This document shows positions 2,999-51,273 of a stretch of 64,000 nt of DNA, in pieces. How positions within the stretch are numbered: position 1 is the first letter of the stretch; the number at the start of each line of letters is the position of its first letter. The position numbers were made by a program, and so were the translations under genes. This DNA comes from a virus (Duplodnaviria > Caudoviricetes): the IMG/VR virus record IMGVR_UViG_3300029928_000003; one strand, given 5' to 3'. The notes below the pieces were generated by a model that saw only the letters and a program-made list of their open reading frames with translations, ran no database searches and was not told the origin of the DNA.

Positions 2999-3092
2999 AC
3001 GCATTTAGGAATAAATAGTTTGTCATATATAAAATAAAACATATGAAATTATATAATTTTTTAAGTAAACATATCACAACCATATACTGGTT

Positions 3093-3338
3093 GTGTATAT
3101 CTTATTGTATAGTATTTATTTTAGTAGGACTTTTACATGTTTTATTAAAATGAAGAATTACAAACTATATAGTCCTGGTGATGAAGTAATTATCATTAGG
3201 ACACATAAAGATGACTTAAATAAAAAAGGAATAATCATAGAAGTAAATTGTTCCTATTGTAAAATCAAAATTGGAGACAAAGTATATAATCATACTTATG
3301 CCCAATTTAAAAAAGTTAATAAAAATGAAAACGATTAA
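3093..3338 (+). CDS. small KOW/SH3-like protein (start probably ATG at 3150)
   Basis: PGDEVIII...KKGIIIEV pattern. Confidence 0.5.
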   Translation: MYILLYSIYFSRTFTCFIKMKNYKLYSPGDEVIIIRTHKDDLNKKGIIIEVNCSYCKIKIGDKVYNHTYAQFKKVNKNEND

Positions 3339-3488
3339 ATATATTGGGCAGCTACTATTAATGGTATTTGGAATTGTAGTAATGACTATTAGTATGTACT
3401 TCTTAGGAGCTGCCTTAAACATTATATGATAAATATTTTCGTTGCAATAGGTTGTTAATACGGTCTGTGATAGATAGTATTAATGTTT

Positions 3489-3562
3489 GTTCTAATAACT
3501 CAATTGGATAGAGTAACACTCTTCTAAAGTGTAAGTTGTGGGTTCGAGTCCCACTTAGAACA
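3489..3562 (+). tRNA. tRNA-Arg(TCT)
   Basis: GTTCTAA/TTAGAAC acceptor, ACACT-CTTCTAA-AGTGT anticodon arm, canonical T-arm. Confidence 0.95.
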
Positions 3563-3695
3563 CAGATGCGTTAAGGATGTTAATTATTTTTGTTTTATAA
3601 AATATTATGTTATTGAGAAATAATATATGGTTAGAGAATTTTATAATTTTTCGTGAATTAAAAAGTGTTATGTTATTGTGAAATAACATAACACT

Positions 3696-3761
3696 GCTTT
3701 TAATGTAGCTTATCTTTATAAGATAAAGAGTCCAAAGCCTCTATAAATACAGATGGAAAGT
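3696..3761 (+). ncRNA. twister ribozyme (type P1)
   Basis: P1 GCTTT/AAAGT, TAA, P2 TGT/ACA, P3 TTATCT/AGATAA, P4 AGAG/CTCT, pseudoknots CCA/TGG and GC/GC. Confidence 0.9.
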
Positions 3762-34663: not shown

Positions 34664-34866
34664 TGGAATTTAATAAATTAAATTCAGTAACTGATAAACT
34701 AGGAAAATACTTTTATACTAGTAATGATGATTATATTACTGTTACTAAATGGAGTAATGGAGAAGGATATGATATAGATTTAAATGGAAAACTTGTTCAA
34801 CTTCATGAATGTGAATTAGATGCTATTAATTATTTAGTTCAAACATTACGATATGAAGAAAAGTGA
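34663..34866 (+). CDS. hypothetical protein
   Basis: VTKWSNGEGYDI. Confidence 0.7.
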   Translation: MEFNKLNSVTDKLGKYFYTSNDDYITVTKWSNGEGYDIDLNGKLVQLHECELDAINYLVQTLRYEEK

Positions 34867-35164
34867 TTTTTGTAAAGTAGCTACAACAATATTAACAATA
34901 GAAGATTTCTTTGATAAATCTTTTAAGTTAAATATAGATTTAATATCTTCTCCGGTTTCAGACTATTATGTTATTTCAAGTATCTTATTTGAAACTAATT
35001 ACGGTATTAAAGGTAAAGAATTCCTTGATTGGTGGTTTTATGAAAGAGATACAAACAAATCCACAAAAGAACAATTATGGGATGAAAATGGAGATCCTAT
35101 AGATGTAGACTCTATTTTATCTTTATATCAATATATGGAAGATAATTATAGAAATAATTGTTAA
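34853..35164 (+). CDS. hypothetical protein
   Basis: 103 aa; GKEFLDWWFYE. Confidence 0.7.
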   Translation: MKKSDFCKVATTILTIEDFFDKSFKLNIDLISSPVSDYYVISSILFETNYGIKGKEFLDWWFYERDTNKSTKEQLWDENGDPIDVDSILSLYQYMEDNYRNNC

Positions 35165-35189
35165 ATTAAATAATTTATAGTATATTTGA

Positions 35190-35499
35190 CTTTGACGTAG
35201 TGCTTCTTTGCAGATCAGTTCTAGCACATAATAAACATTAGAACCGTGCGTGTATTCGCTTGTCAAAGCTAACTGCCCTAGGAATCCCGCTCTGTCTTTG
35301 GCCCTGACAACGGGTGCTGGTACAAATCGGGGCGTGCCCAGCATCACAGTGTGTATACATTGGTTAGTAGCGACGACTCCTTAGTGAAAGTCTCAGACTT
35401 TTAACGAAAATAGTACCTAAGAAGGGGAAGGAGTTCAAGTTGGCATATATCAATAGAGTAAAAATTGATATTACCAGCATAGGGGGCCCTATATACTAT
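35190..35499 (+). ncRNA. unidentified ~310-nt structured RNA
   Basis: GC-rich intergenic block between TATATTTG (35181) and a terminator; many nested stems. Confidence 0.7.
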
Positions 35500-35508
35500 T
35501 GTTAATTC

Positions 35509-35548
35509 AGATAAGTCCTAAGTATTTTCTTAGGACTTATCTTTTTTT
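35509..35548 (+). terminator. Rho-independent terminator
   Basis: AGATAAGTCCTAAG/CTTAGGACTTATCT followed by T tract. Confidence 0.85.
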
Positions 35549-35556
35549 ATCTATTT

Positions 35557-36771
35557 ATGATTGAATATTTATTAGGAAAAAGTTCTGCTGGTAAATTTAG
35601 ATTTGCCGTTATTGAATGTAACGAACAATGGAGTGAACCCGATAAAGGCTATGTTATTCAACGTAGTTATGGGCAAGTAGGCGGTAAAACAACTTTATCT
35701 CCTAAGATTATTGTAGATAGAACTAAACAGAAAAGAAATTGGAAAGAACAATATACTTTACAATTTAATTCGGAATTGAAGAAATTTCTAGATAAGGGTT
35801 ATATCAAAGTATCTAAGCACCCTAATGAGTATACAAATGAAGAACTTAATTCTATCTTCGGTGAAGTTAAAACTAATCAATATGGAGTAATTAAACCTAT
35901 GTTAGCTAAGCAAGCCGATAAAGTTACTAATAAAAAGATATTTGATAATGTTTGGATAGCTTCAAAAAAATTAGATGGCGTAAGATGCCTTATGTACTAT
36001 AAAGATGGAGAAATACTTACTGCTTCTAGAGGTGGAGAAACATATCAACCATCTACAGTACATATTCGTAGTGATGAACGATTATTAAATTACTTTATAA
36101 ATAATCCAACTCATATTCTAGATGGAGAATTATTTAGAAGATTTAAAAGTCTTCAGCAAATTAGTGGTGCAGCTAGATTAGAGAAAAATGCTTATGATTG
36201 TGAATGGCTTCAATACTGGATATACGATGTATATGATACTTCTAATCCTGATTGGAAAGCTGGAGATAGAATAAAACATCTTCTTAATAGTTCAATTACT
36301 TATAATATTCCATTATATGCAGATACTTCCATGGATGAAGAAGATAGTAATATATTTATATTAATGCAAGAACCTATTTCAGGTTGGGATAATATAGATA
36401 AATTACATGATCAATTTGTAAATGAAGGATTTGAAGGAGTAGTAATTAGAAATCCAGATAAACCTTACAAACCAGGAGGTCGTACAAATGATATGATTAA
36501 AGTAAAGAAATATAAATCTGAAGATTTTAAAGTAATAGGATATAAACTAGGTCTTAGAGGTTCTGAAGATATGACTTTTACTTGTGAATTAGAAGATGGT
36601 AGAACATTTGAAGCAATGCCTTGTGGAACAAGAGAACAGAAAGTAGAATATGTTGAGAACTTTGATTCTAAATATAAAGGACATAAAGCAGAATGTACTT
36701 TCTTTAATTATTCAGATGATGGAATTCCTACTCAACCTAAATTAAGAATCTTTAGATTTGATTTAGAATAA
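35557..36771 (+). CDS. ATP-dependent DNA ligase with N-terminal WGR-like domain
   Basis: KLDGVR, LDGEL, FEGVVIR, KVK. Confidence 0.93.
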   Translation: MIEYLLGKSSAGKFRFAVIECNEQWSEPDKGYVIQRSYGQVGGKTTLSPKIIVDRTKQKRNWKEQYTLQFNSELKKFLDKGYIKVSKHPNEYTNEELNSIFGEVKTNQYGVIKPMLAKQADKVTNKKIFDNVWIASKKLDGVRCLMYYKDGEILTASRGGETYQPSTVHIRSDERLLNYFINNPTHILDGELFRRFKSLQQISGAARLEKNAYDCEWLQYWIYDVYDTSNPDWKAGDRIKHLLNSSITYNIPLYADTSMDEEDSNIFILMQEPISGWDNIDKLHDQFVNEGFEGVVIRNPDKPYKPGGRTNDMIKVKKYKSEDFKVIGYKLGLRGSEDMTFTCELEDGRTFEAMPCGTREQKVEYVENFDSKYKGHKAECTFFNYSDDGIPTQPKLRIFRFDLE

Positions 36772-37609: not shown

Positions 37610-39708
37610 TATATTTAGTTAGTAATAATAATACTCTATTTGAATCCAATAATTATAAAAAGATATCTTGTAAAGATGCATTACAATTATTAGATAAATT
37701 AAAGCTAATACAGTTAGACAGTGAGACTTCTGGACTAGATTGTCATACTAAAGTATTACTTACTTTACAATTAGGTAATAAAGATAATCAAATAGTATTT
37801 GATTGGACTACTATTTCTAATGAGGATAAATCTTCTATTAAGAAGTTCTTAGAAAGTGAAGATAAGACTTGGCTAGCATGGAATGCTGCGTTTGATTTAA
37901 CTTTTCTTTATGTTCAACATATATATCCTAAGAATATTATTGATGGAATGATATTAGATAAACTGATATTTTTAGGATATCCTCCATCATTAACTCCAGA
38001 TTTATTTACTAATCAATTTGGGTATAAACCAGTATATGATGCTAATAATGTTTTAAAACATTATGAATTAAGTTATTCTTTAAAAGCGGCCGCTGATAGG
38101 TGGATACATACAGATATTGATAAATCAGTCAGAGGCCAGATTATTACTAAAGGATTAACCGATTCTGTAGTAGTTTATGCCGCAAATGATGTTAGGTGGT
38201 TAGAAGATATATATAATGAACAATTAAAAGAGCTAACTAAACAAGATTTATTACGAGCAGCTAAATTTGAATGTGAATTCATTAAATCTGTAGCTTATAC
38301 TAAATATTGTGGTATTCATTTAGATGCAGATAAGTGGAAAGCTAAAATGAAAAAAGACCAAAATAATTTACAAGTGGCTATTAAAGAATTAAATAATTAT
38401 GTAGTAAATCTATATAATAAAGATAAGTCCTATAAAGCTTTTACAACATATGTTCAACCAGATTTATTTGGATTTACTACTCCTGGGATTGCTTGTAATA
38501 TAAATTGGAGTAGTTCTAAACAGGTAATACTCTTATTTGAACAACTTGGAATACAGGTTAAAACATTTGATAAGAAGACTAGAAAAGAAAAGAAATCTAT
38601 AGAAGAAAAACAATTAGCTCCACAATCTGATAAGTTTCCCATTATCCCATTATTTTTAAGATATCAGGGTGCTTCTAAACTTGTATCTACTTATGGTGAT
38701 AATTGGCTAAAAGCAATTAATCCTAAGACTGGAAGAATCCATTTAGAATTACATTCTATTGGTACTGACACCAGTAGAATGAGTAGTGGTGGGGGTGTTT
38801 ATAAATTAAACGCCCAGAATTTACCAAATGATGCTGAAACCAGAGCTTGTTTTACTGCCGAAGAGGGTAATTCCTGGCTTAGTTGTGACTACAAAGGGCA
38901 AGAAAGTTGTTTAATAGCTTCGGTATCTAAAGATAAAGCTATGATTAAAGAACTTAGTAAACCTAATGGTGATATTCATAGCTTAGTGGCTTATATGTCT
39001 TATCCTAGTATAATTCCTAGGAATACTCCTATAGAAAATATTAAGAAAGAATATCACGACGCTAGACAGAATGCTAAAGGAATTGAATTCTCGATCAATT
39101 ATGGCGGTGATGCTCATACAATAGCTAATAATAAGGGTATTTCTATTAAAGAAGCAGAAAAAATCTATAATGACTTTATGAAGGGTTTTCCAGGTATTCA
39201 TAAGTATCAACAATATTGTAGAAATACAATACTACAGAAAGGCTATATACTTATGAATCCTATTTTAGGACACCGTGCCCATCTATATGACGGAGAATGG
39301 TTAAAGAAGATGTCTAATAAAATGGAAGATCCCGAATTTGTTAATTATTATTGGCAAATGCGTAAATTAAGTCCTAATTGTGATACTGTTAAAGATGTAA
39401 ATAGATTTAATAAGAGAAAAGCTGCTTCTGAAAAACAATCTATAAACTATCGTATACAAAACCGTGGGGCTTGCTGCTTTAAATTAGCTTCTATTAAGTT
39501 ATTTAATTGGATAGTTAATAATAACTATCAAGATAAAGTACTTATGTGTGTCCCTGCCCATGATGAATGGAATCTTGAATGCCCTAAAGACATGCAAGAT
39601 ATTGTGGGTAAAGTTTTAGTGCAATGTATGGTTGCAGGAGGTAGACCCTTCTGTCCTAACGTATTCTTAGGGGCTGACTTAGAAATTTCAGATCATTGGG
39701 TTCATTAA
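37606..39708 (+). CDS. polA: family A DNA polymerase with 3'-5' exonuclease
   Basis: DSETSG exo I; DYKGQE, RQNAKGIEFSINYG, AHDE. Confidence 0.95.
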   Translation: MIYLVSNNNTLFESNNYKKISCKDALQLLDKLKLIQLDSETSGLDCHTKVLLTLQLGNKDNQIVFDWTTISNEDKSSIKKFLESEDKTWLAWNAAFDLTFLYVQHIYPKNIIDGMILDKLIFLGYPPSLTPDLFTNQFGYKPVYDANNVLKHYELSYSLKAAADRWIHTDIDKSVRGQIITKGLTDSVVVYAANDVRWLEDIYNEQLKELTKQDLLRAAKFECEFIKSVAYTKYCGIHLDADKWKAKMKKDQNNLQVAIKELNNYVVNLYNKDKSYKAFTTYVQPDLFGFTTPGIACNINWSSSKQVILLFEQLGIQVKTFDKKTRKEKKSIEEKQLAPQSDKFPIIPLFLRYQGASKLVSTYGDNWLKAINPKTGRIHLELHSIGTDTSRMSSGGGVYKLNAQNLPNDAETRACFTAEEGNSWLSCDYKGQESCLIASVSKDKAMIKELSKPNGDIHSLVAYMSYPSIIPRNTPIENIKKEYHDARQNAKGIEFSINYGGDAHTIANNKGISIKEAEKIYNDFMKGFPGIHKYQQYCRNTILQKGYILMNPILGHRAHLYDGEWLKKMSNKMEDPEFVNYYWQMRKLSPNCDTVKDVNRFNKRKAASEKQSINYRIQNRGACCFKLASIKLFNWIVNNNYQDKVLMCVPAHDEWNLECPKDMQDIVGKVLVQCMVAGGRPFCPNVFLGADLEISDHWVH

Positions 39709-39722
39709 TAAATATTAATTCT

Positions 39723-42700
39723 ATGAATATAACTAAACGAGACGGATCGATTGAAAAATTTGATATTAATAAAATTATTAATGCTGTAGGTAAAGCATAT
39801 AAATCAGAAGGATATACAATTAATGATGATATTATAGATGAATTAAAAAATCTTACTACTACATATATTTCAGATAATATTTCAGTAGAAAAAATACAAG
39901 ATGAAGTAGAGCAAATTTTAATGGATAATGCTCCTTTTGATGTAGCTAAAGCATATATTACATATAGAGAGAAACATAAACAATCAAGACTTATTAGAGA
40001 AAGAATTGATTATATGAATAAATATAGTCAATCAAATGATAATGCTGCATCTTCTAGTGAAACTGATGGTAATTCTAATGTTACCATTAAAAATGTAGCT
40101 AATCTTGAAGGAGAAGTATATAAAACTACTAATAGAATCATTCAAAGACAACGAATGAAAGATAAGTTAAATGAAATGTTTCCAGAAGTAGCTAAACAAT
40201 ATGAAGAAGATTTAAATCATCATATTATATATACGCACGATGAAGCTAGTACTCCTGTTTTAAAGAATTATTGTATGGCAGTATCTTTATATCCTTTAAT
40301 AGAATATGGTACTTCTACAATGGATGGATTAAAAGCTTCTGCTCCTAAAAACTTAGATAGCTTTTGTGGACAATTTGTTAATCTTGTATTCTTATTAAGT
40401 TCTCAATGTAAAGGAGCTGTTGGGTTTGGAGAGTTCTTTAATTTCTTTGATTATTATTGTGCTAAAGAATGGGGGCCTAATTATCATCTTAAAGAAGATA
40501 TAATTGTAGATACAGATTATGTAGTTAATCCAAAAACCATTGGTCAAAAAATAGAACAATATTTTCAACAAGTTGTCTATTCATTAAATCAACCAGCAGG
40601 TAATAGATCATATCAATCCCCATTTACTAACTTTAATTATTTTGACAGTAATTATTGGCATAGTTTATTTGATGATTTCTGTTTTCCTGATGGTAGTAAA
40701 CCTGTATGGGAAAGAGTAGATTTTCTTCAAAGAAAATTTATGAATTGGTTTAATGAGGAAAGAACTAAAACTTTACTTACATATCCTGTAGAATCTATGT
40801 GTTTATTACATGATGGTAAAGATGTAATTGATAAATCATATAAAGATTTAGCTGCTGAAATGTGGTCTAAAGGACATAGTTTCTTTGTGTACTTATCTGA
40901 TAATCCAGATGCGGTTGCAAGTTGCTGTTTTAGCAAGGATACTAAATTTTTATGGAAATCTTCTACAAGTGAGGTTCATATTAGTACCTTTAAAGAATTT
41001 CTTGATCTTCCCTATAAACAAACGAAAGAAAATTTTAAAGTATTTCATAATGGTTCATGGATAAAAGGTAAAATAATTTCTCTTCCAAATAGACAAATGT
41101 ATAAAGTTATCACTTATAATAATAAAGAATTTATTATGAGTGATAACCATATTAATGTTACGTATGATGGAGAAAAAAGAACAGAAGATTTAACAACAGA
41201 TGATTATCTTATGTTCAATACTTCAACACTTTCACCTGTTACAGAAAATAACGAACATTTAACTTATGAACAAGGTTTGTTAATAGGGTTATTCTTAGGT
41301 GATGGAACCTTTGGAAATTATGTATGTCTTGATGGTAGTGTTCATAGTTTTCAACTCTCTCTAAATAAAGAAAAATGGGAAAAAGTACAAAACCATTTAT
41401 CAAAAATTGGAGATTTTAGATTAGGTACTATATATAATAATGTATATCCTATTCATTGTTATAATAAAGAATTAACTACATTTATAGCGAAATGGACTGG
41501 TAATGAACCTAATAAGACTTCTGCTTTAAATAAATCTTTAAATCTAGATTGTTTTTTACAGTCAGTAGAATTTAGGAGAGGTATTCTTGATGGTTGGTAT
41601 ATTACAGATGGAGGTAATTCAAATAGATGCTATACTATAAGCAAACATTTGGTTGAAAGAATGGAAGCTTTATGTACTACATTAGGGTTGCAAACTATAC
41701 TTAATATATCAGATAGGACAGATGAAGCTGTAATTATTAGAGGCCAAGAATTTAACAGAAATTACCCATTATATTGTCTTAGATGGTATGTTGATGCTAA
41801 TCATAGATGCAATAAAACTAAAGATAAATCTTGGAAGAAAAAGAATAATAGTATATATTGGAAAATTAAATCCATAGAGCCAATAGAATATAAAGATAAT
41901 ATATATTGTGTTCAATGTGATAATCAAGATGAACCCTATTTTACATTACCTAATGGGTTAATTACTCATAACTGTAGATTGAGGAATGAAGTAGTTAATA
42001 ATACTTTTAGTTCAACTACTGGACTTACGGGTGTACAAACAGGTTCAGTTAATGTAATTACTCTTAACTTAAATAGAATAGTACAAGATTGGTATAAAGA
42101 ATATAATAAATCAAAAGATAAGTTTGATTTAGATACTTTGAAACCCAGTTTTAAAGCTTATTTATTAAAGATTCTTGAAAGAGTTTATAAATATCAAGTA
42201 GCTTATAAAACAATGTTGTTTGAACTTGAGAAACAAGGTATGCTTACTGCTTCAAAGGCTGGATATATTTCAATGAAGAAACTATTTTCTACTATTGGTG
42301 TGAACGGTTTTAATGAAATGGCTCAATTTATGGGGCTTAAAGTAAGTAATAATACTGAATACAAAGACTTTATTGCTTATGTATTTAATATTATCTCTAC
42401 TTTCTGTAAAGAAAAGTCTACAAAAAATTATCTCTTTAACTTAGAAGTAGTGCCAGCAGAGAGTCTGGGTTCAAAAAACTATAATTGGGATAAAAAAGAT
42501 GGTTATATTGTGCCAAATAATGAAGTATTGTATAATTCTTATATATACGATGCACATGATCCTAATACTTCTGTTTTAGATAAGTTTGTACTACAAGGAG
42601 GTAAAGTAGCAAAAGCATCATCTGGAGGACAAGCACTTCATTGTAATCTAGAGGATCATTTAAGTAAAGAACAATATCTTAAACTTATAGAATTTGCTAT

Positions 42701-42917
42701 ACAAAAAGGTACATCATATTTCACTTTTAATATTCCAAATAGTCAATGTGATAATTGTGGTTTTATTACTAAACATCCAATAAAAAAATGTCCTATATGT
42801 GGTAGTAATAATATTACTCAGTGGACAAGAACAATTGGATATTTAAGACCTATTAAAGCTATGGATTATTATAGGCAAATAGAAGCAAACAATAGAGTAT
42901 ATAGTAAAACAATTTAA
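39723..42917 (+). CDS. nrdD: anaerobic (class III) ribonucleotide reductase with intein
   Basis: ATP cone MNITKRDG; SC|intein|CRL; CxxC...CPxC; RTIGYL glycyl-radical loop. Confidence 0.95.
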   Translation: MNITKRDGSIEKFDINKIINAVGKAYKSEGYTINDDIIDELKNLTTTYISDNISVEKIQDEVEQILMDNAPFDVAKAYITYREKHKQSRLIRERIDYMNKYSQSNDNAASSSETDGNSNVTIKNVANLEGEVYKTTNRIIQRQRMKDKLNEMFPEVAKQYEEDLNHHIIYTHDEASTPVLKNYCMAVSLYPLIEYGTSTMDGLKASAPKNLDSFCGQFVNLVFLLSSQCKGAVGFGEFFNFFDYYCAKEWGPNYHLKEDIIVDTDYVVNPKTIGQKIEQYFQQVVYSLNQPAGNRSYQSPFTNFNYFDSNYWHSLFDDFCFPDGSKPVWERVDFLQRKFMNWFNEERTKTLLTYPVESMCLLHDGKDVIDKSYKDLAAEMWSKGHSFFVYLSDNPDAVASCCFSKDTKFLWKSSTSEVHISTFKEFLDLPYKQTKENFKVFHNGSWIKGKIISLPNRQMYKVITYNNKEFIMSDNHINVTYDGEKRTEDLTTDDYLMFNTSTLSPVTENNEHLTYEQGLLIGLFLGDGTFGNYVCLDGSVHSFQLSLNKEKWEKVQNHLSKIGDFRLGTIYNNVYPIHCYNKELTTFIAKWTGNEPNKTSALNKSLNLDCFLQSVEFRRGILDGWYITDGGNSNRCYTISKHLVERMEALCTTLGLQTILNISDRTDEAVIIRGQEFNRNYPLYCLRWYVDANHRCNKTKDKSWKKKNNSIYWKIKSIEPIEYKDNIYCVQCDNQDEPYFTLPNGLITHNCRLRNEVVNNTFSSTTGLTGVQTGSVNVITLNLNRIVQDWYKEYNKSKDKFDLDTLKPSFKAYLLKILERVYKYQVAYKTMLFELEKQGMLTASKAGYISMKKLFSTIGVNGFNEMAQFMGLKVSNNTEYKDFIAYVFNIISTFCKEKSTKNYLFNLEVVPAESLGSKNYNWDKKDGYIVPNNEVLYNSYIYDAHDPNTSVLDKFVLQGGKVAKASSGGQALHCNLEDHLSKEQYLKLIEFAIQKGTSYFTFNIPNSQCDNCGFITKHPIKKCPICGSNNITQWTRTIGYLRPIKAMDYYRQIEANNRVYSKTI
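40926..41972 (+). mobile_element. intein (349 aa) with LAGLIDADG endonuclease
   Basis: Starts CFSKDT, ends ITHN before C; LLIGLFLGDG and GILDGWYITDG blocks. Confidence 0.93.
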
Positions 42918-49650: not shown

Positions 49651-51273
49651 ATGAAATTAAATTCTACAAAAATGGGTATTTGGTTTACTTCAGATACCCA
49701 TTTTTATCATAAAAACATTATTAAGTTTACTAATAGACCTTGGAATACAGTAGAAGAAATGAATAATGCATTAATTAACAATTGGAATGAAGTTGTTAAA
49801 CCTAATGATACTGTATTTCATTTAGGAGACTTTGCTTTTACTTCTAATGGTAATTGGAAAAAACTTATTAATGAATTAAATGGAAAAATCTATCTTATAT
49901 TAGGAAATCATAAAATTTACGAATTTTAACAAGGAAACCTGAGGAAACCTAATTATATTTGCGCTGTAATAAATTTATTATTTTATGAGACAGCACAAAT
50001 TAAACATTGATTATTTTAATGAGATTAATTCTCATGAGAAGGCGTATGTATTAGGTTTCTTATATGCAGATGGATCAAATAGGGGAGATGGTATAATATT
50101 TTCACAGAATGTTGAAAGAATAGATATTCTTGAGAAGATAAAGAAGGCTTTAGATTCTGAAGCTCCTATTAGAGAACGAGTTTCAGGACTTTTTGTTCTT
50201 GAACTGTTTAGCAAAAAAAATGGTTAAGGACGTTGAACGGCTAGGTGTTGTTAGAAACAAGTTCCTAATATTACAATTTCCAACTAAAGAGTTGGTTCCA
50301 GAGGAGTTTATGTCTTCTTTTATTCTCGGATATTTTGACGGAGATGGATGCATTTGGAACGGTAAGAGAAAGAAAATGATAGTTAAAGATTCTTCACGCA
50401 AAGAAGGATTTAGAGAAAGGATAGTACATAATGTAAAATTTACTTTTACTGGATGTGTATCCTTTATTGCTCCTCTACAAGAGTATTTGGTTAAGGTAGG
50501 TATAGTAAAGAGAAAAACTAAATTAAACTACTCCAAAGCAAAGAATCCAAATAATTCTACTTGTGACAAAGTGTGTACTATGGAGTACTCTGGCAGAGGA
50601 CAGATAAAGAATCTCTATGAGTATATGTATTCAAAAGCCCCTATTTGGTGCAATGAAAAGAAGTTAAAATTTGAAAAAATATTTTGTGCTTCAGATGAGA
50701 AATCACCTGTAGAAACTGTGTTAACTGAGGAAACGGCTGAGAGGCTAATCCTCAACCAAGCCTCTAATGTGGAGGAAGGCTCATCGACTATCCCTGAGAT
50801 GGGAGTAGGACCAAGTGGCCCGAAATACACAGCCCCTAACGAGCAAAGTCAAGGGTGTGAGATAGTCAGTTCTCATATGAATAAGGAAGTATGAGCTATG
50901 GGTATGAAATACCCTATCGGTACTAGTCTAACGAACTAGTATAAACACCAAGGACGAATTACATAGTCCAGGTAAATATGTATTAGATTTATTTGAAGGG
51001 GTATACAATCAATTGTTAATTAAAATTGATAATAGAAAAGTATATTTAAATCATTATCCTTTTCTTTGTTATGCTGGAACATATAGAGGTAAAGATTATA
51101 ATACAATACAATTATTTGGACATGTACATAGTAATAAAGAAAATACTCATGGTAAAGATAAAGATAGATTAAAATATTTATTTCCTACTCAATATGATGT
51201 AGGAGTAGATAATAATAATTATTATCCAGTATCTTGGAATCAAATATTAGAAATTATAAATAAATATGGCTAA
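49651..51273 (+). CDS. calcineurin-like phosphoesterase, 2 exons: 49651-49911 and 50953-51273
   Basis: SDTHF, HLGDF, GNH|D restored by splicing, LNHYP, FGHVH, DVGVD. Confidence 0.9.
49912..50952 (+). mobile_element. group I intron 3
   Basis: CAU|...G boundaries; P7 GACTAT/ATAGTC; TGTG/CACA P3. Confidence 0.88.
49985..50894 (+). pseudogene. LAGLIDADG homing endonuclease split by an extra A in the A8 run at 50213-50220
   Basis: AYVLGFLYADGS in ORF1 and SFILGYFDGDGC in ORF2; removing one A fuses them (~302 aa). Confidence 0.85.

Follow-up and report, generated by a model that had tools for sequence, protein, structure and literature searches.

This report concerns a structured RNA locus at positions 35181-35548 of the + strand of IMGVR_UViG_3300029928_000003, a 64,000-nucleotide (nt) stretch of virus DNA (the window) from a large crAss-like phage that reassigns the TAG stop codon. 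The locus forms a sharp island of high guanine-cytosine (GC) content. Its product is predicted to be a multi-domain compact fold with covariation-supported pseudoknots, having a core of ~300 nt and a total length of ~350 nt including the tail (35198-35549). It is a previously undescribed family by sequence comparison, with no match to any Rfam 15 family, and the locus is neither coding nor an intron. There is about an even chance that 35198-35494, plus the terminator to 35549, constitutes a self-contained gene for a trans-acting, compactly folded non-coding RNA (ncRNA), a ribozyme or a specific binder, which would have its own promoter and act in the early or replication phase of infection. 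All RNA coordinates below are on the + strand.

The comparison set consisted of five sequences from four lineages: the window; G429 (IMGVR_UViG_3300001528_000174) with its close variant L091 (ERZ808275 NODE-24); G430 (IMGVR_UViG_3300001528_000136); and G019 (IMGVR_UViG_3300014039_000013). The G429 and G430 copies were located with exact conserved words and the L091 copy by an exact-word scan. A covariance model of the central 227 positions, R1, which scores 267 bits on the window (35215-35441), recovered the divergent copy in G019 at 78 bits (E 7e-24); this copy was overlooked by BLAST. Core identity to the window is 85% for G429 and L091, 86% for G430 and 61% for G019, and G019 is 61-64% identical to the others. 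In all four of these sequences conservation starts and stops at the same places, from UAGUGCUUC to CCCUAUAU (35198-35494). Near-identical copies of the window element, differing at three bases, are carried by G002 and by one contig from a genome whose title is Candidatus Melainabacteria.

The substitutions among these copies follow the pairing scheme. When both pseudoknots are included, 99.3% of cells are paired in the four similar sequences, as against 95.3% in shuffles and 38-50% in slid controls. Two-sided changes occur at 12 of 73 pairs (shuffles 6.0±1.4, slid controls 1-3). With G019 added they occur at 16 of 52 nested pairs (shuffles 5.7±1.8, slid controls 0-5), in an alignment that leans towards the structure because it was fitted to the model. 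The RNA is assigned to the + strand by the terminators and by numerous invariant G-U pairs that are compatible with that strand only. The minimum free energy z-score of the region is -3.3 against shuffles and is equal on both strands, so that folding energy by itself is no evidence. The first-pass annotation had proposed a GC-rich, multi-domain, pseudoknotted ncRNA at this place, and this proposal is borne out by the covariation together with the lack of a conserved open reading frame (ORF).

From 5' to 3' the fold consists of an H-type pseudoknot, a small hairpin, a central domain, and the domains iota and kappa. The 5' pseudoknot, which had been overlooked earlier, is formed by helices alpha and beta, and alpha was absent from the earlier list of helices. 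Alpha (35200-35204 with 35223-35227) is GUGCU/AGCAC, and becomes GUCCU/AGGAC in G019 by a single compensatory event (G-C to C-G). Beta (35218-35224 with 35238-35244) shows a G-C to U-A change in G019, and its A-rich loop, the near-invariant CACAUAAUAAAYAU, is retained in all copies. The small hairpin gamma (35248-35259), GCG/CGC, is invariant in three lineages and lengthened to GCGG/CCGC in G019.

The central domain (35262-35374) is closed by helix delta, CUAACU/GGUUAG (35268-35274 with 35362-35368), in which a G-U pair changes to A-U. The delta extension (35262-35264 with 35372-35374) goes from GUC/GAC to ACC/GGU in G019, giving two compensatory pairs. Inside the domain, hairpin zeta (35286-35289 with 35311-35314 and 35293-35296 with 35306-35309) changes from CCCG/CGGG to CCUCG/CGAGG in G429 and CCAUG/CAUGG in G019. 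Helix eta (35315-35320 with 35338-35343) is UGCUGG/CCAGCA in three lineages, where it is invariant, and CCAG/CUGG in G019. Hairpin theta (35348-35361) has an A-U to C-G change in G429 and G430 and is poorly retained in G019. The domain is knotted by two further pairings. In pseudoknot epsilon (35275-35279 with 35329-35333), whose 3' strand lies inside the eta loop, the pairing takes the forms GCCCU/GGGGC (window and G429), GCCCU/AGGGC (L091), GUCCG/CGGAC (G430) and AACGU/ACGUU (G019). The long-range pseudoknot mu joins the zeta loop (35300-35304) to 35484-35488 near the 3' end, with ~180 nt between the strands, and occurs in four complementary forms: GGCCC/GGGCC (window), AAUCC/GGAUU, GACCC/GGGUC and CAACUCC/GGAGUUG.

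Domain iota is closed by a stem (35375-35382 with 35428-35435) with two to three compensatory pairs, the forms being ACUCCUU/AAGGAGU in the window and ACCUCUU/AAGAGGU and GGCCUC/GAGGCU elsewhere. Its inner variable hairpin (35388-35392 with 35396-35400) adds four compensatory pairs. The same domain carries a purine-rich, apparently unpaired stretch, CCUAAGAAGGG (35416-35426), that is identical in all five sequences including G019. It is complementary to an invariant 5' CUUCUU (35203-35208); that pairing is unproven because both strands are invariant. In the variable hairpin kappa (35441-35476) the sequence is replaced in G429 and G019, and G430 is ~65 nt longer than G429 here. The kappa closing stem (UGG../..CCA) is nevertheless retained, as UGGUAU/AUACCA, or GCCAGC/GCUGGU in G019. 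Two other pairings were considered and rejected. A terminal helix joining the 5' end to the 3' end, suggested by RNAalifold, is incompatible with mu and is retained in G019 no more than in part, and a CUUAG/CUAAG pairing within iota is disrupted by a one-sided change in G019.

Nearly all of the stems listed in the first-pass annotation were recovered by this comparison. GTTCTA/TAGAAC, CTAACT/GGTTAG, CCCG/CGGG, TGTC/GACA, GTGCTGG/CCAGCAT, CAGTGT/ACATTG, ACTCCTT/AAGGAGT and AAAGTC/GACTTT were confirmed in the homologs, ATATCAAT/ATTGATAT is a hairpin of varying length among them, and the three suggested pseudoknots, GCCCT/GGGGC, GGCCC/GGGCC and TGCTGGT/ACCAGCA, keep their complementarity across the sequence forms. 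The stem CTTTGAC/GTCAAAG did not hold up: no homolog has its 5' half, which probably lies upstream of where transcription would start.

One strand of the central domain has two possible partners. The segment 35315-35321, UGCUGGU, can pair locally in eta or with the distal ACCAGCA at 35473-35479 in an alternative helix, lambda. Since TGCTGGT/ACCAGCA excludes GTGCTGG/CCAGCAT, the two cannot form together; lambda excludes both eta and the kappa base, the latter being partly overlapped by the second lambda partner. In G019 the equivalent strand reads UCCAGCC and its two partners have changed in step, the local one to CUGG and the distal one to GGCUGG, so that CCAGCC/GGCUGG is available at matching places. 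Thus in both sequence clades one 5' strand is complementary to the eta and the lambda partners. The mutual exclusion implies that the RNA may have two functional conformations, and a switch between the two pairings may exist; with one independent change, it is a lead.

The flanks of the core were examined for signals that would make it a transcription unit. A promoter-like -10/-7 box, TATATT(TG), can be read directly at 35181-35188 and might serve as the promoter. In all four lineages a TATAT(T) box lies 8-11 nt before the conserved block, and conservation begins at UAGUGC, where a transcript start would be expected relative to that box. A sigma-70 scan gave TTGTTA-17-TATATT a score of 9/12, which is not above chance, and TAnnTTTG is not enriched in the window (76 observed, 99 expected), so that the TATATTTG element offered earlier as promoter evidence loses its weight. 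The strong terminator noted earlier is present as an intrinsic terminator at 35509-35549, with a 14-bp stem, a 6-nt loop and T7 (-20.5 kcal/mol, z -6.1). In three of the four lineages (window, G429 and G430) a strong hairpin and then a U tract come after the RNA. The window hairpin is unrelated to the other two. Those of G429 and G430 (L088 5870-5915 (-), L089 11470-11515 (-)) are homologous to each other, and their outer stem covaries, CCCAAA/UUUGGG as against CCCUAG/CUAGGG. Of the earlier description of a stand-alone ncRNA with its own promoter and terminator, the stand-alone ncRNA and its terminator were supported, and the promoter motif proved to be no more frequent than chance.

The position of the terminator raises the possibility, which we consider real though not probable, that the RNA is a cis-acting leader, riboswitch-like or a factor-dependent attenuator, whose fold senses a metabolite or protein and sets read-through into the downstream DNA-metabolism gene. 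Like riboswitch and attenuator leaders, the RNA in every case immediately precedes a gene on the coding strand (ligase, NrdD or an exonuclease VIII-like gene, all of DNA metabolism), and it has a compact pseudoknotted fold. Aptamers typically show pseudoknots, a compact fold and invariant nucleotides at the junctions. The terminator tail of the window element stops 8 nt short of the ligase ATG, which means that ligase, sigma and PolA must be transcribed through the terminator. The mutually exclusive helices found in both clades, eta plus the kappa base or lambda, are what a switch would need. Against a leader, there is no conserved pairing or overlap between core and terminator; the terminators differ and lie 15-40 nt past the last conserved base, and G019 has no terminator hairpin at all. 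The downstream gene varies, being ligase in two lineages, NrdD in one and the exonuclease VIII-like gene in one; the position upstream of ligase, sigma and polA that had been remarked on is therefore true of the window and is not fixed. The downstream genes are of DNA metabolism, but so is the whole surrounding block. In addition a TATAAT-like box can be read in G430 after the terminator and before the ligase, the core of about 290 nt is much larger than known aptamers, no Rfam riboswitch matches it, and most relatives express the same genes without the element.

Coding capacity and capture from a host were considered as a further explanation of the island. The GC content is 48.5% at 35200-35399, as against 23-31% in both flanks; it is 46-54% over the island, 54% at its 120-nt peak and 27.9% over the whole window. 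The explanation holds that the locus is protein-coding, through a minus-strand ORF of 74 amino acids (aa) or another small ORF, or that it is a functionless GC-rich fragment taken from the host. The 74-aa ORF is indeed present in the window, and the GC content of the island is foreign to the phage. This frame is, however, broken across two frames in G429, the ORFs over the RNA region vary in frame and length among copies with none shared, and the G019 locus has no ORF of at least 30 aa on either strand with code 11 or with TAG read as Q. The substitutions in helices are compensatory. A host origin was looked for by BLAST in 401 genomes and by covariance model in 151, all from the family to which the metagenome-assembled genome with the phage contig belongs, and this yielded only that contig, short AT-rich chance matches and one partial 17-bit match (E 0.03). 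This explanation is close to refuted. The RNA is absent from the other genomes of the Melainabacteria-bin family among those searched. The contig itself, L092 (CALEJY010000136.1, equal to G001:C136), is a 17-kb piece of this crAss-like phage binned in an 'uncultured Candidatus Melainabacteria' genome; the binning may be an artefact or may hint at a non-Bacteroidota host.

The relation to known RNA families was examined with Rfam 15 and by class-specific features. At gathering thresholds the whole window contains five transfer RNAs (tRNAs) and no family at the RNA locus. At E<=10 the RNA region gives six unrelated weak matches, the best of which reaches 19.8 bits where the threshold is 51, and the G019, G429 and G430 loci have no match common to the three. 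ARAGORN found five tRNAs and no transfer-messenger RNA (tmRNA) in the window. Phage-encoded tmRNA examples exist, and tmRNA resembles the present RNA in its length of ~300 nt and its several H-type pseudoknots; this RNA differs in having no tRNA-like acceptor, T-arm or CCA end, no Rfam tmRNA match and no conserved ORF or frame for a tag. For bacterial RNase P RNA there is no Rfam match at E<=10 and the conserved P4 core, a GGAAAGUCC-type strand, is not found; the GAAAGUC of the window is part of a variable hairpin and is altered in homologs.

Group I introns, of which these phage genomes contain many, share several outward traits with the RNA, namely 250-350 nt of GC-rich sequence in an AT-rich phage, a patchy and mobile-looking distribution, and a strand order of epsilon, zeta and eta that resembles P3, P4-P6 and P7. 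Unlike them, the RNA interrupts no gene and has its own terminator. Only 4 nt (35334-35337) lie between the 3' strands of epsilon and eta, where P8 would be, and an 8-nt linker is found where P7 and P3' usually adjoin. Its conserved 3' boundary is CU(A/G)UAUAU, from which the terminal G is absent, and the group I model RF00028 gives no signal at E<=10. Group II introns give no Rfam match, and the 5' GUGCU changes to GUCCU in G019 as the paired strand of AGCAC/AGGAC. For a HEARO or omega-RNA guide scaffold, no HEARO match was obtained and the neighbouring genes at the loci are not nucleases of the IscB or TnpB kind. The earlier statement that tmRNA, RNase P and group I core motifs are missing thus agrees with Rfam, with ARAGORN and with the P8 and terminal-G features. 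The first-pass annotation had also named three outcomes that would tell against it, namely an Rfam match, lack of covariation, and conservation of the minus-strand 74-aa ORF; each was looked for and none was found.

A reverse-transcriptase-associated ncRNA of the UG27, DRT or retron type is another known class to be weighed. Reverse transcriptase (RVT_1) ORFs with in-frame TAG are present in all four complete genomes tested, with or without the RNA (G429:C1:54963-55562; G430:C1:27528-28226; G019:C1:148308-148883; G003:C1:67258-67746). Phage UG27 reverse transcriptases have an associated ncRNA described as three long stem-loops, located between the reverse transcriptase and a partner gene; it is a conserved ncRNA whose predicted carriers are gut phages, among them crAss-like ones and ones with stop-codon reassignment (PMC9226505). 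The present RNA likewise is a structured ncRNA of gut phages that carry a reverse transcriptase, some UG27 carriers being crAss-like or recoded as well (PMC9226505). It differs in being based on pseudoknots and in its location: it lies at 160 kb in G429, 131.7 kb in G430 and 82.6 kb in G019, 66-105 kb from the reverse transcriptase, whereas the UG27 ncRNA adjoins its enzyme. Because of this distance, and since G003 has a reverse transcriptase without the RNA, such an association was rejected.

It is accordingly very improbable that the RNA belongs, in strongly diverged form, to one of the known classes (tmRNA, RNase P RNA, reverse-transcriptase-associated ncRNAs, fragments of group I or II introns, or guide scaffolds of the omega-RNA type) and escapes the Rfam models. 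Phage versions of known RNAs may score under Rfam thresholds, and the phages do encode a reverse transcriptase; four lineages without an Rfam signal at E<=10, and the missing tRNA-like end, RNase P P4 consensus, P8 between the would-be P3' and P7', and 3' boundary G, speak against it. A role as replication origin or primer RNA is not indicated either, the turning points of the cumulative GC skew being 21-37 kb distant with none at the locus.

The distribution of the RNA is narrow and patchy. Covariance models found no copy in 28 related records, of which 15 have a completeness of 90% or more, and BLAST of 26 related phage genomes gave chance matches only (E>0.1). No match to the element came up when 50,697 phage records were searched by BLAST, and BLAST of a 12-kb stretch gave a sole match, 52 bp of nrdD to Aeromonas phages. 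A 20-mer of the eta loop, which covers a polymorphic base, had zero matches in the viral collection; a 16-mer of hairpin gamma returned chance matches and the window's own record, and two degenerate patterns across the beta loop returned just the four viral records already known. Mean protein identity to the window phage over the 21 ORFs common to all compared genomes is 45% for G019, 42% for G429 and 42% for G430, which carry the RNA, and 54% for G003, 49% for G021 and 43% for G006, which do not. With 85-86% identity to G429 and G430 as against ~42% for the proteins of those phages, the RNA is far better conserved than the proteome. As the nearest proteomes, those of G003 and G021, are without it, its distribution does not track proteome relatedness.

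Three genomic contexts are occupied. In the window and G430 the RNA lies between a homolog of a 103-aa gene and ligase, syntenic though the flanking proteins are 28-56% identical; in G429 and L091 it lies between a 264-aa ORF and NrdD; and in G019 between a weakly NT5C-like (nucleotidase-like) ORF and an exonuclease VIII-like ORF. When the window ligase was used as a query, 28 related loci were found in the viral collection, and in most of them the 103-aa gene homolog stops ~15 nt short of the ligase start. The RNA locus is thus an insertion, because most of these relatives have ~15 nt there and no copy was found in the relatives searched. The ligase is alignable from residue 1 and the upstream gene ends in its own stop codon. 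The pattern fits a self-contained RNA gene that would have been exchanged among phages and repeatedly lost.

The same pattern could be produced by a selfish mobile RNA-gene cassette, ribozyme-based or recombination-prone or a relic, spread among co-infecting phages with no benefit required. The patchy distribution at odds with proteome relatedness, the three insertion contexts, the occupation of the same 103-aa-homolog/ligase site in the window and G430 despite diverged flanking proteins, and the richness of these genomes in introns, inteins and homing endonuclease genes are all in its favor. Yet no mobility protein is linked to the RNA, terminal repeats or a target duplication were not seen, no gene is interrupted, and the hallmarks of group I and group II introns are lacking. 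The conserved unpaired nucleotides and two pseudoknots point to selection on the RNA's own activity. A purely selfish cassette is on these grounds unlikely.

For the trans-acting gene, the following steps would apply. The RNA would be transcribed from its own promoter and stop at its own terminator. Once folded it would act in trans, either as a catalyst or by binding specifically to a small molecule or to a protein of host or phage, and would do so during the early or replication phase of infection. The segment 35315-35321 would pair locally in eta or with 35473-35479 in lambda, suggesting two functional conformations. The RNA gene would spread among co-occurring phages by recombination.

Several observations weigh against this reading. 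First, the evidence for a promoter comes down to the positionally recurring TATAT(T) box, and no recognisable terminator follows the RNA in G019. Second, the window terminator, 8 nt from the ligase start codon, fits a cis-acting leader at least equally well, and the gap leaves no room for a separate ligase promoter. Third, no partner for the RNA came to light. Antisense targets of CCUAAGAAGGG were sought and the phage genomes contain no conserved complementary site, and no partner protein was found by co-occurrence. A presence-absence screen matched only two ORFs to the pattern, one of 62-80 aa and one multi-copy and GIY-YIG-like, and the former was rejected as a partner since it also occurs in five RNA-less records, three of them complete. 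Fourth, there are four independent lineages only, so each helix is supported by one to three substitution events and lambda by one. The narrow distribution, four lineages from few gut metagenomes, limits both the statistics and the generality.

The two ORFs that emerged from this screen have features of their own. The 62-80 aa protein (window 3150-3338), MK(N/H)(Y/W)KL...NHTY(A/G)QF, has no family match and is patchy in distribution, being present in all RNA-bearing genomes. The multi-copy ORFs, apparently of the GIY-YIG homing-endonuclease type (G430:C1:54167-58552; G019:C1:16-2395 and 155437-159160), are shared by G429, G430 and G019, and three RNA-less relatives lack them. Screening the other way round, for a protein confined to RNA-less genomes, gave nothing meaningful.

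In the window the genes on either side of the RNA lie on its strand. The upstream gene (34853-35164, +) encodes 103 aa and has no family match. Downstream, the ATP-dependent DNA ligase (35557-36771, +; Pfam DNA_ligase_A_M, E 4.9e-18) starts 8 nt past the terminator tail and is followed by a sigma-70-family gene and then PolA. The nearest relatives of the phage PolA are those of IAS virus and crAss001-type Bacteroides phages, at 44-47% identity, and numerous ORFs of the window are open only when TAG is translated as a residue. In the related loci L029, L030 and L032 the ligase gene is interrupted after about residue 161 by an insert of ~1.13 kb (pieces ~1376-1867 and 3001-3732), which could represent either an intein or an intron that houses a homing endonuclease gene. 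The NrdD of the window (39696-42917) is 1073 aa long with an intein (Pfam Intein_splicing, residues 458-759), and that of G429 and L091 is 737 aa long and intein-free. The window has three other GC-rich islands: 1-180, a GAGGGCGAATCT-type tandem repeat with a hairpin and T run at its end; 901-1240, a GC-rich 86-aa ORF (930-1190); and 50681-50920, the GC-rich part of the ORF 50193-50894.

Among known systems the RNA can be set beside the large orphan structured RNAs of bacteria and phages, namely GOLLD, ROOL, OLE and raiA-type RNAs. Like them it is a long, intricate ncRNA recognized by comparative analysis, phage-borne, with conserved pseudoknots and junction nucleotides, and neither it nor they have a known biochemical function. 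GOLLD and ROOL occur in prophages. The present RNA differs in matching none of these in Rfam 15, in its length of ~300 nt as against ~580-800, and in having been seen so far in four lineages of one phage group. To our knowledge new RNA classes of such size are rare. Complex multi-pseudoknot RNAs with invariant junctions have mostly turned out to be ribozymes, riboswitches or ribonucleoprotein cores once their function was found. A bolder reading, considered possible though not probable, makes the RNA a natural ribozyme of a new kind or a new ligand- or factor-sensing switch, in which eta plus the kappa base or lambda would toggle a double-pseudoknotted core. Large recoded crAss-like phages might employ it in their replication phase, with horizontal exchange of the free-standing RNA gene among them.

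The crAss-like phages are the most abundant group of gut phages, and the RNA is carried by a few lineages of large members that reassign the TAG stop codon. In the lineages that carry it, the RNA is about twice as well conserved as the phage proteins, moves among sites and has no co-travelling protein. The covariation-backed structure, with three pseudoknots and a candidate switch, provides a concrete target for follow-up. Together, the high conservation, the mobility among sites and the lack of a protein partner argue for a strongly selected, RNA-level activity in infection by these phages.

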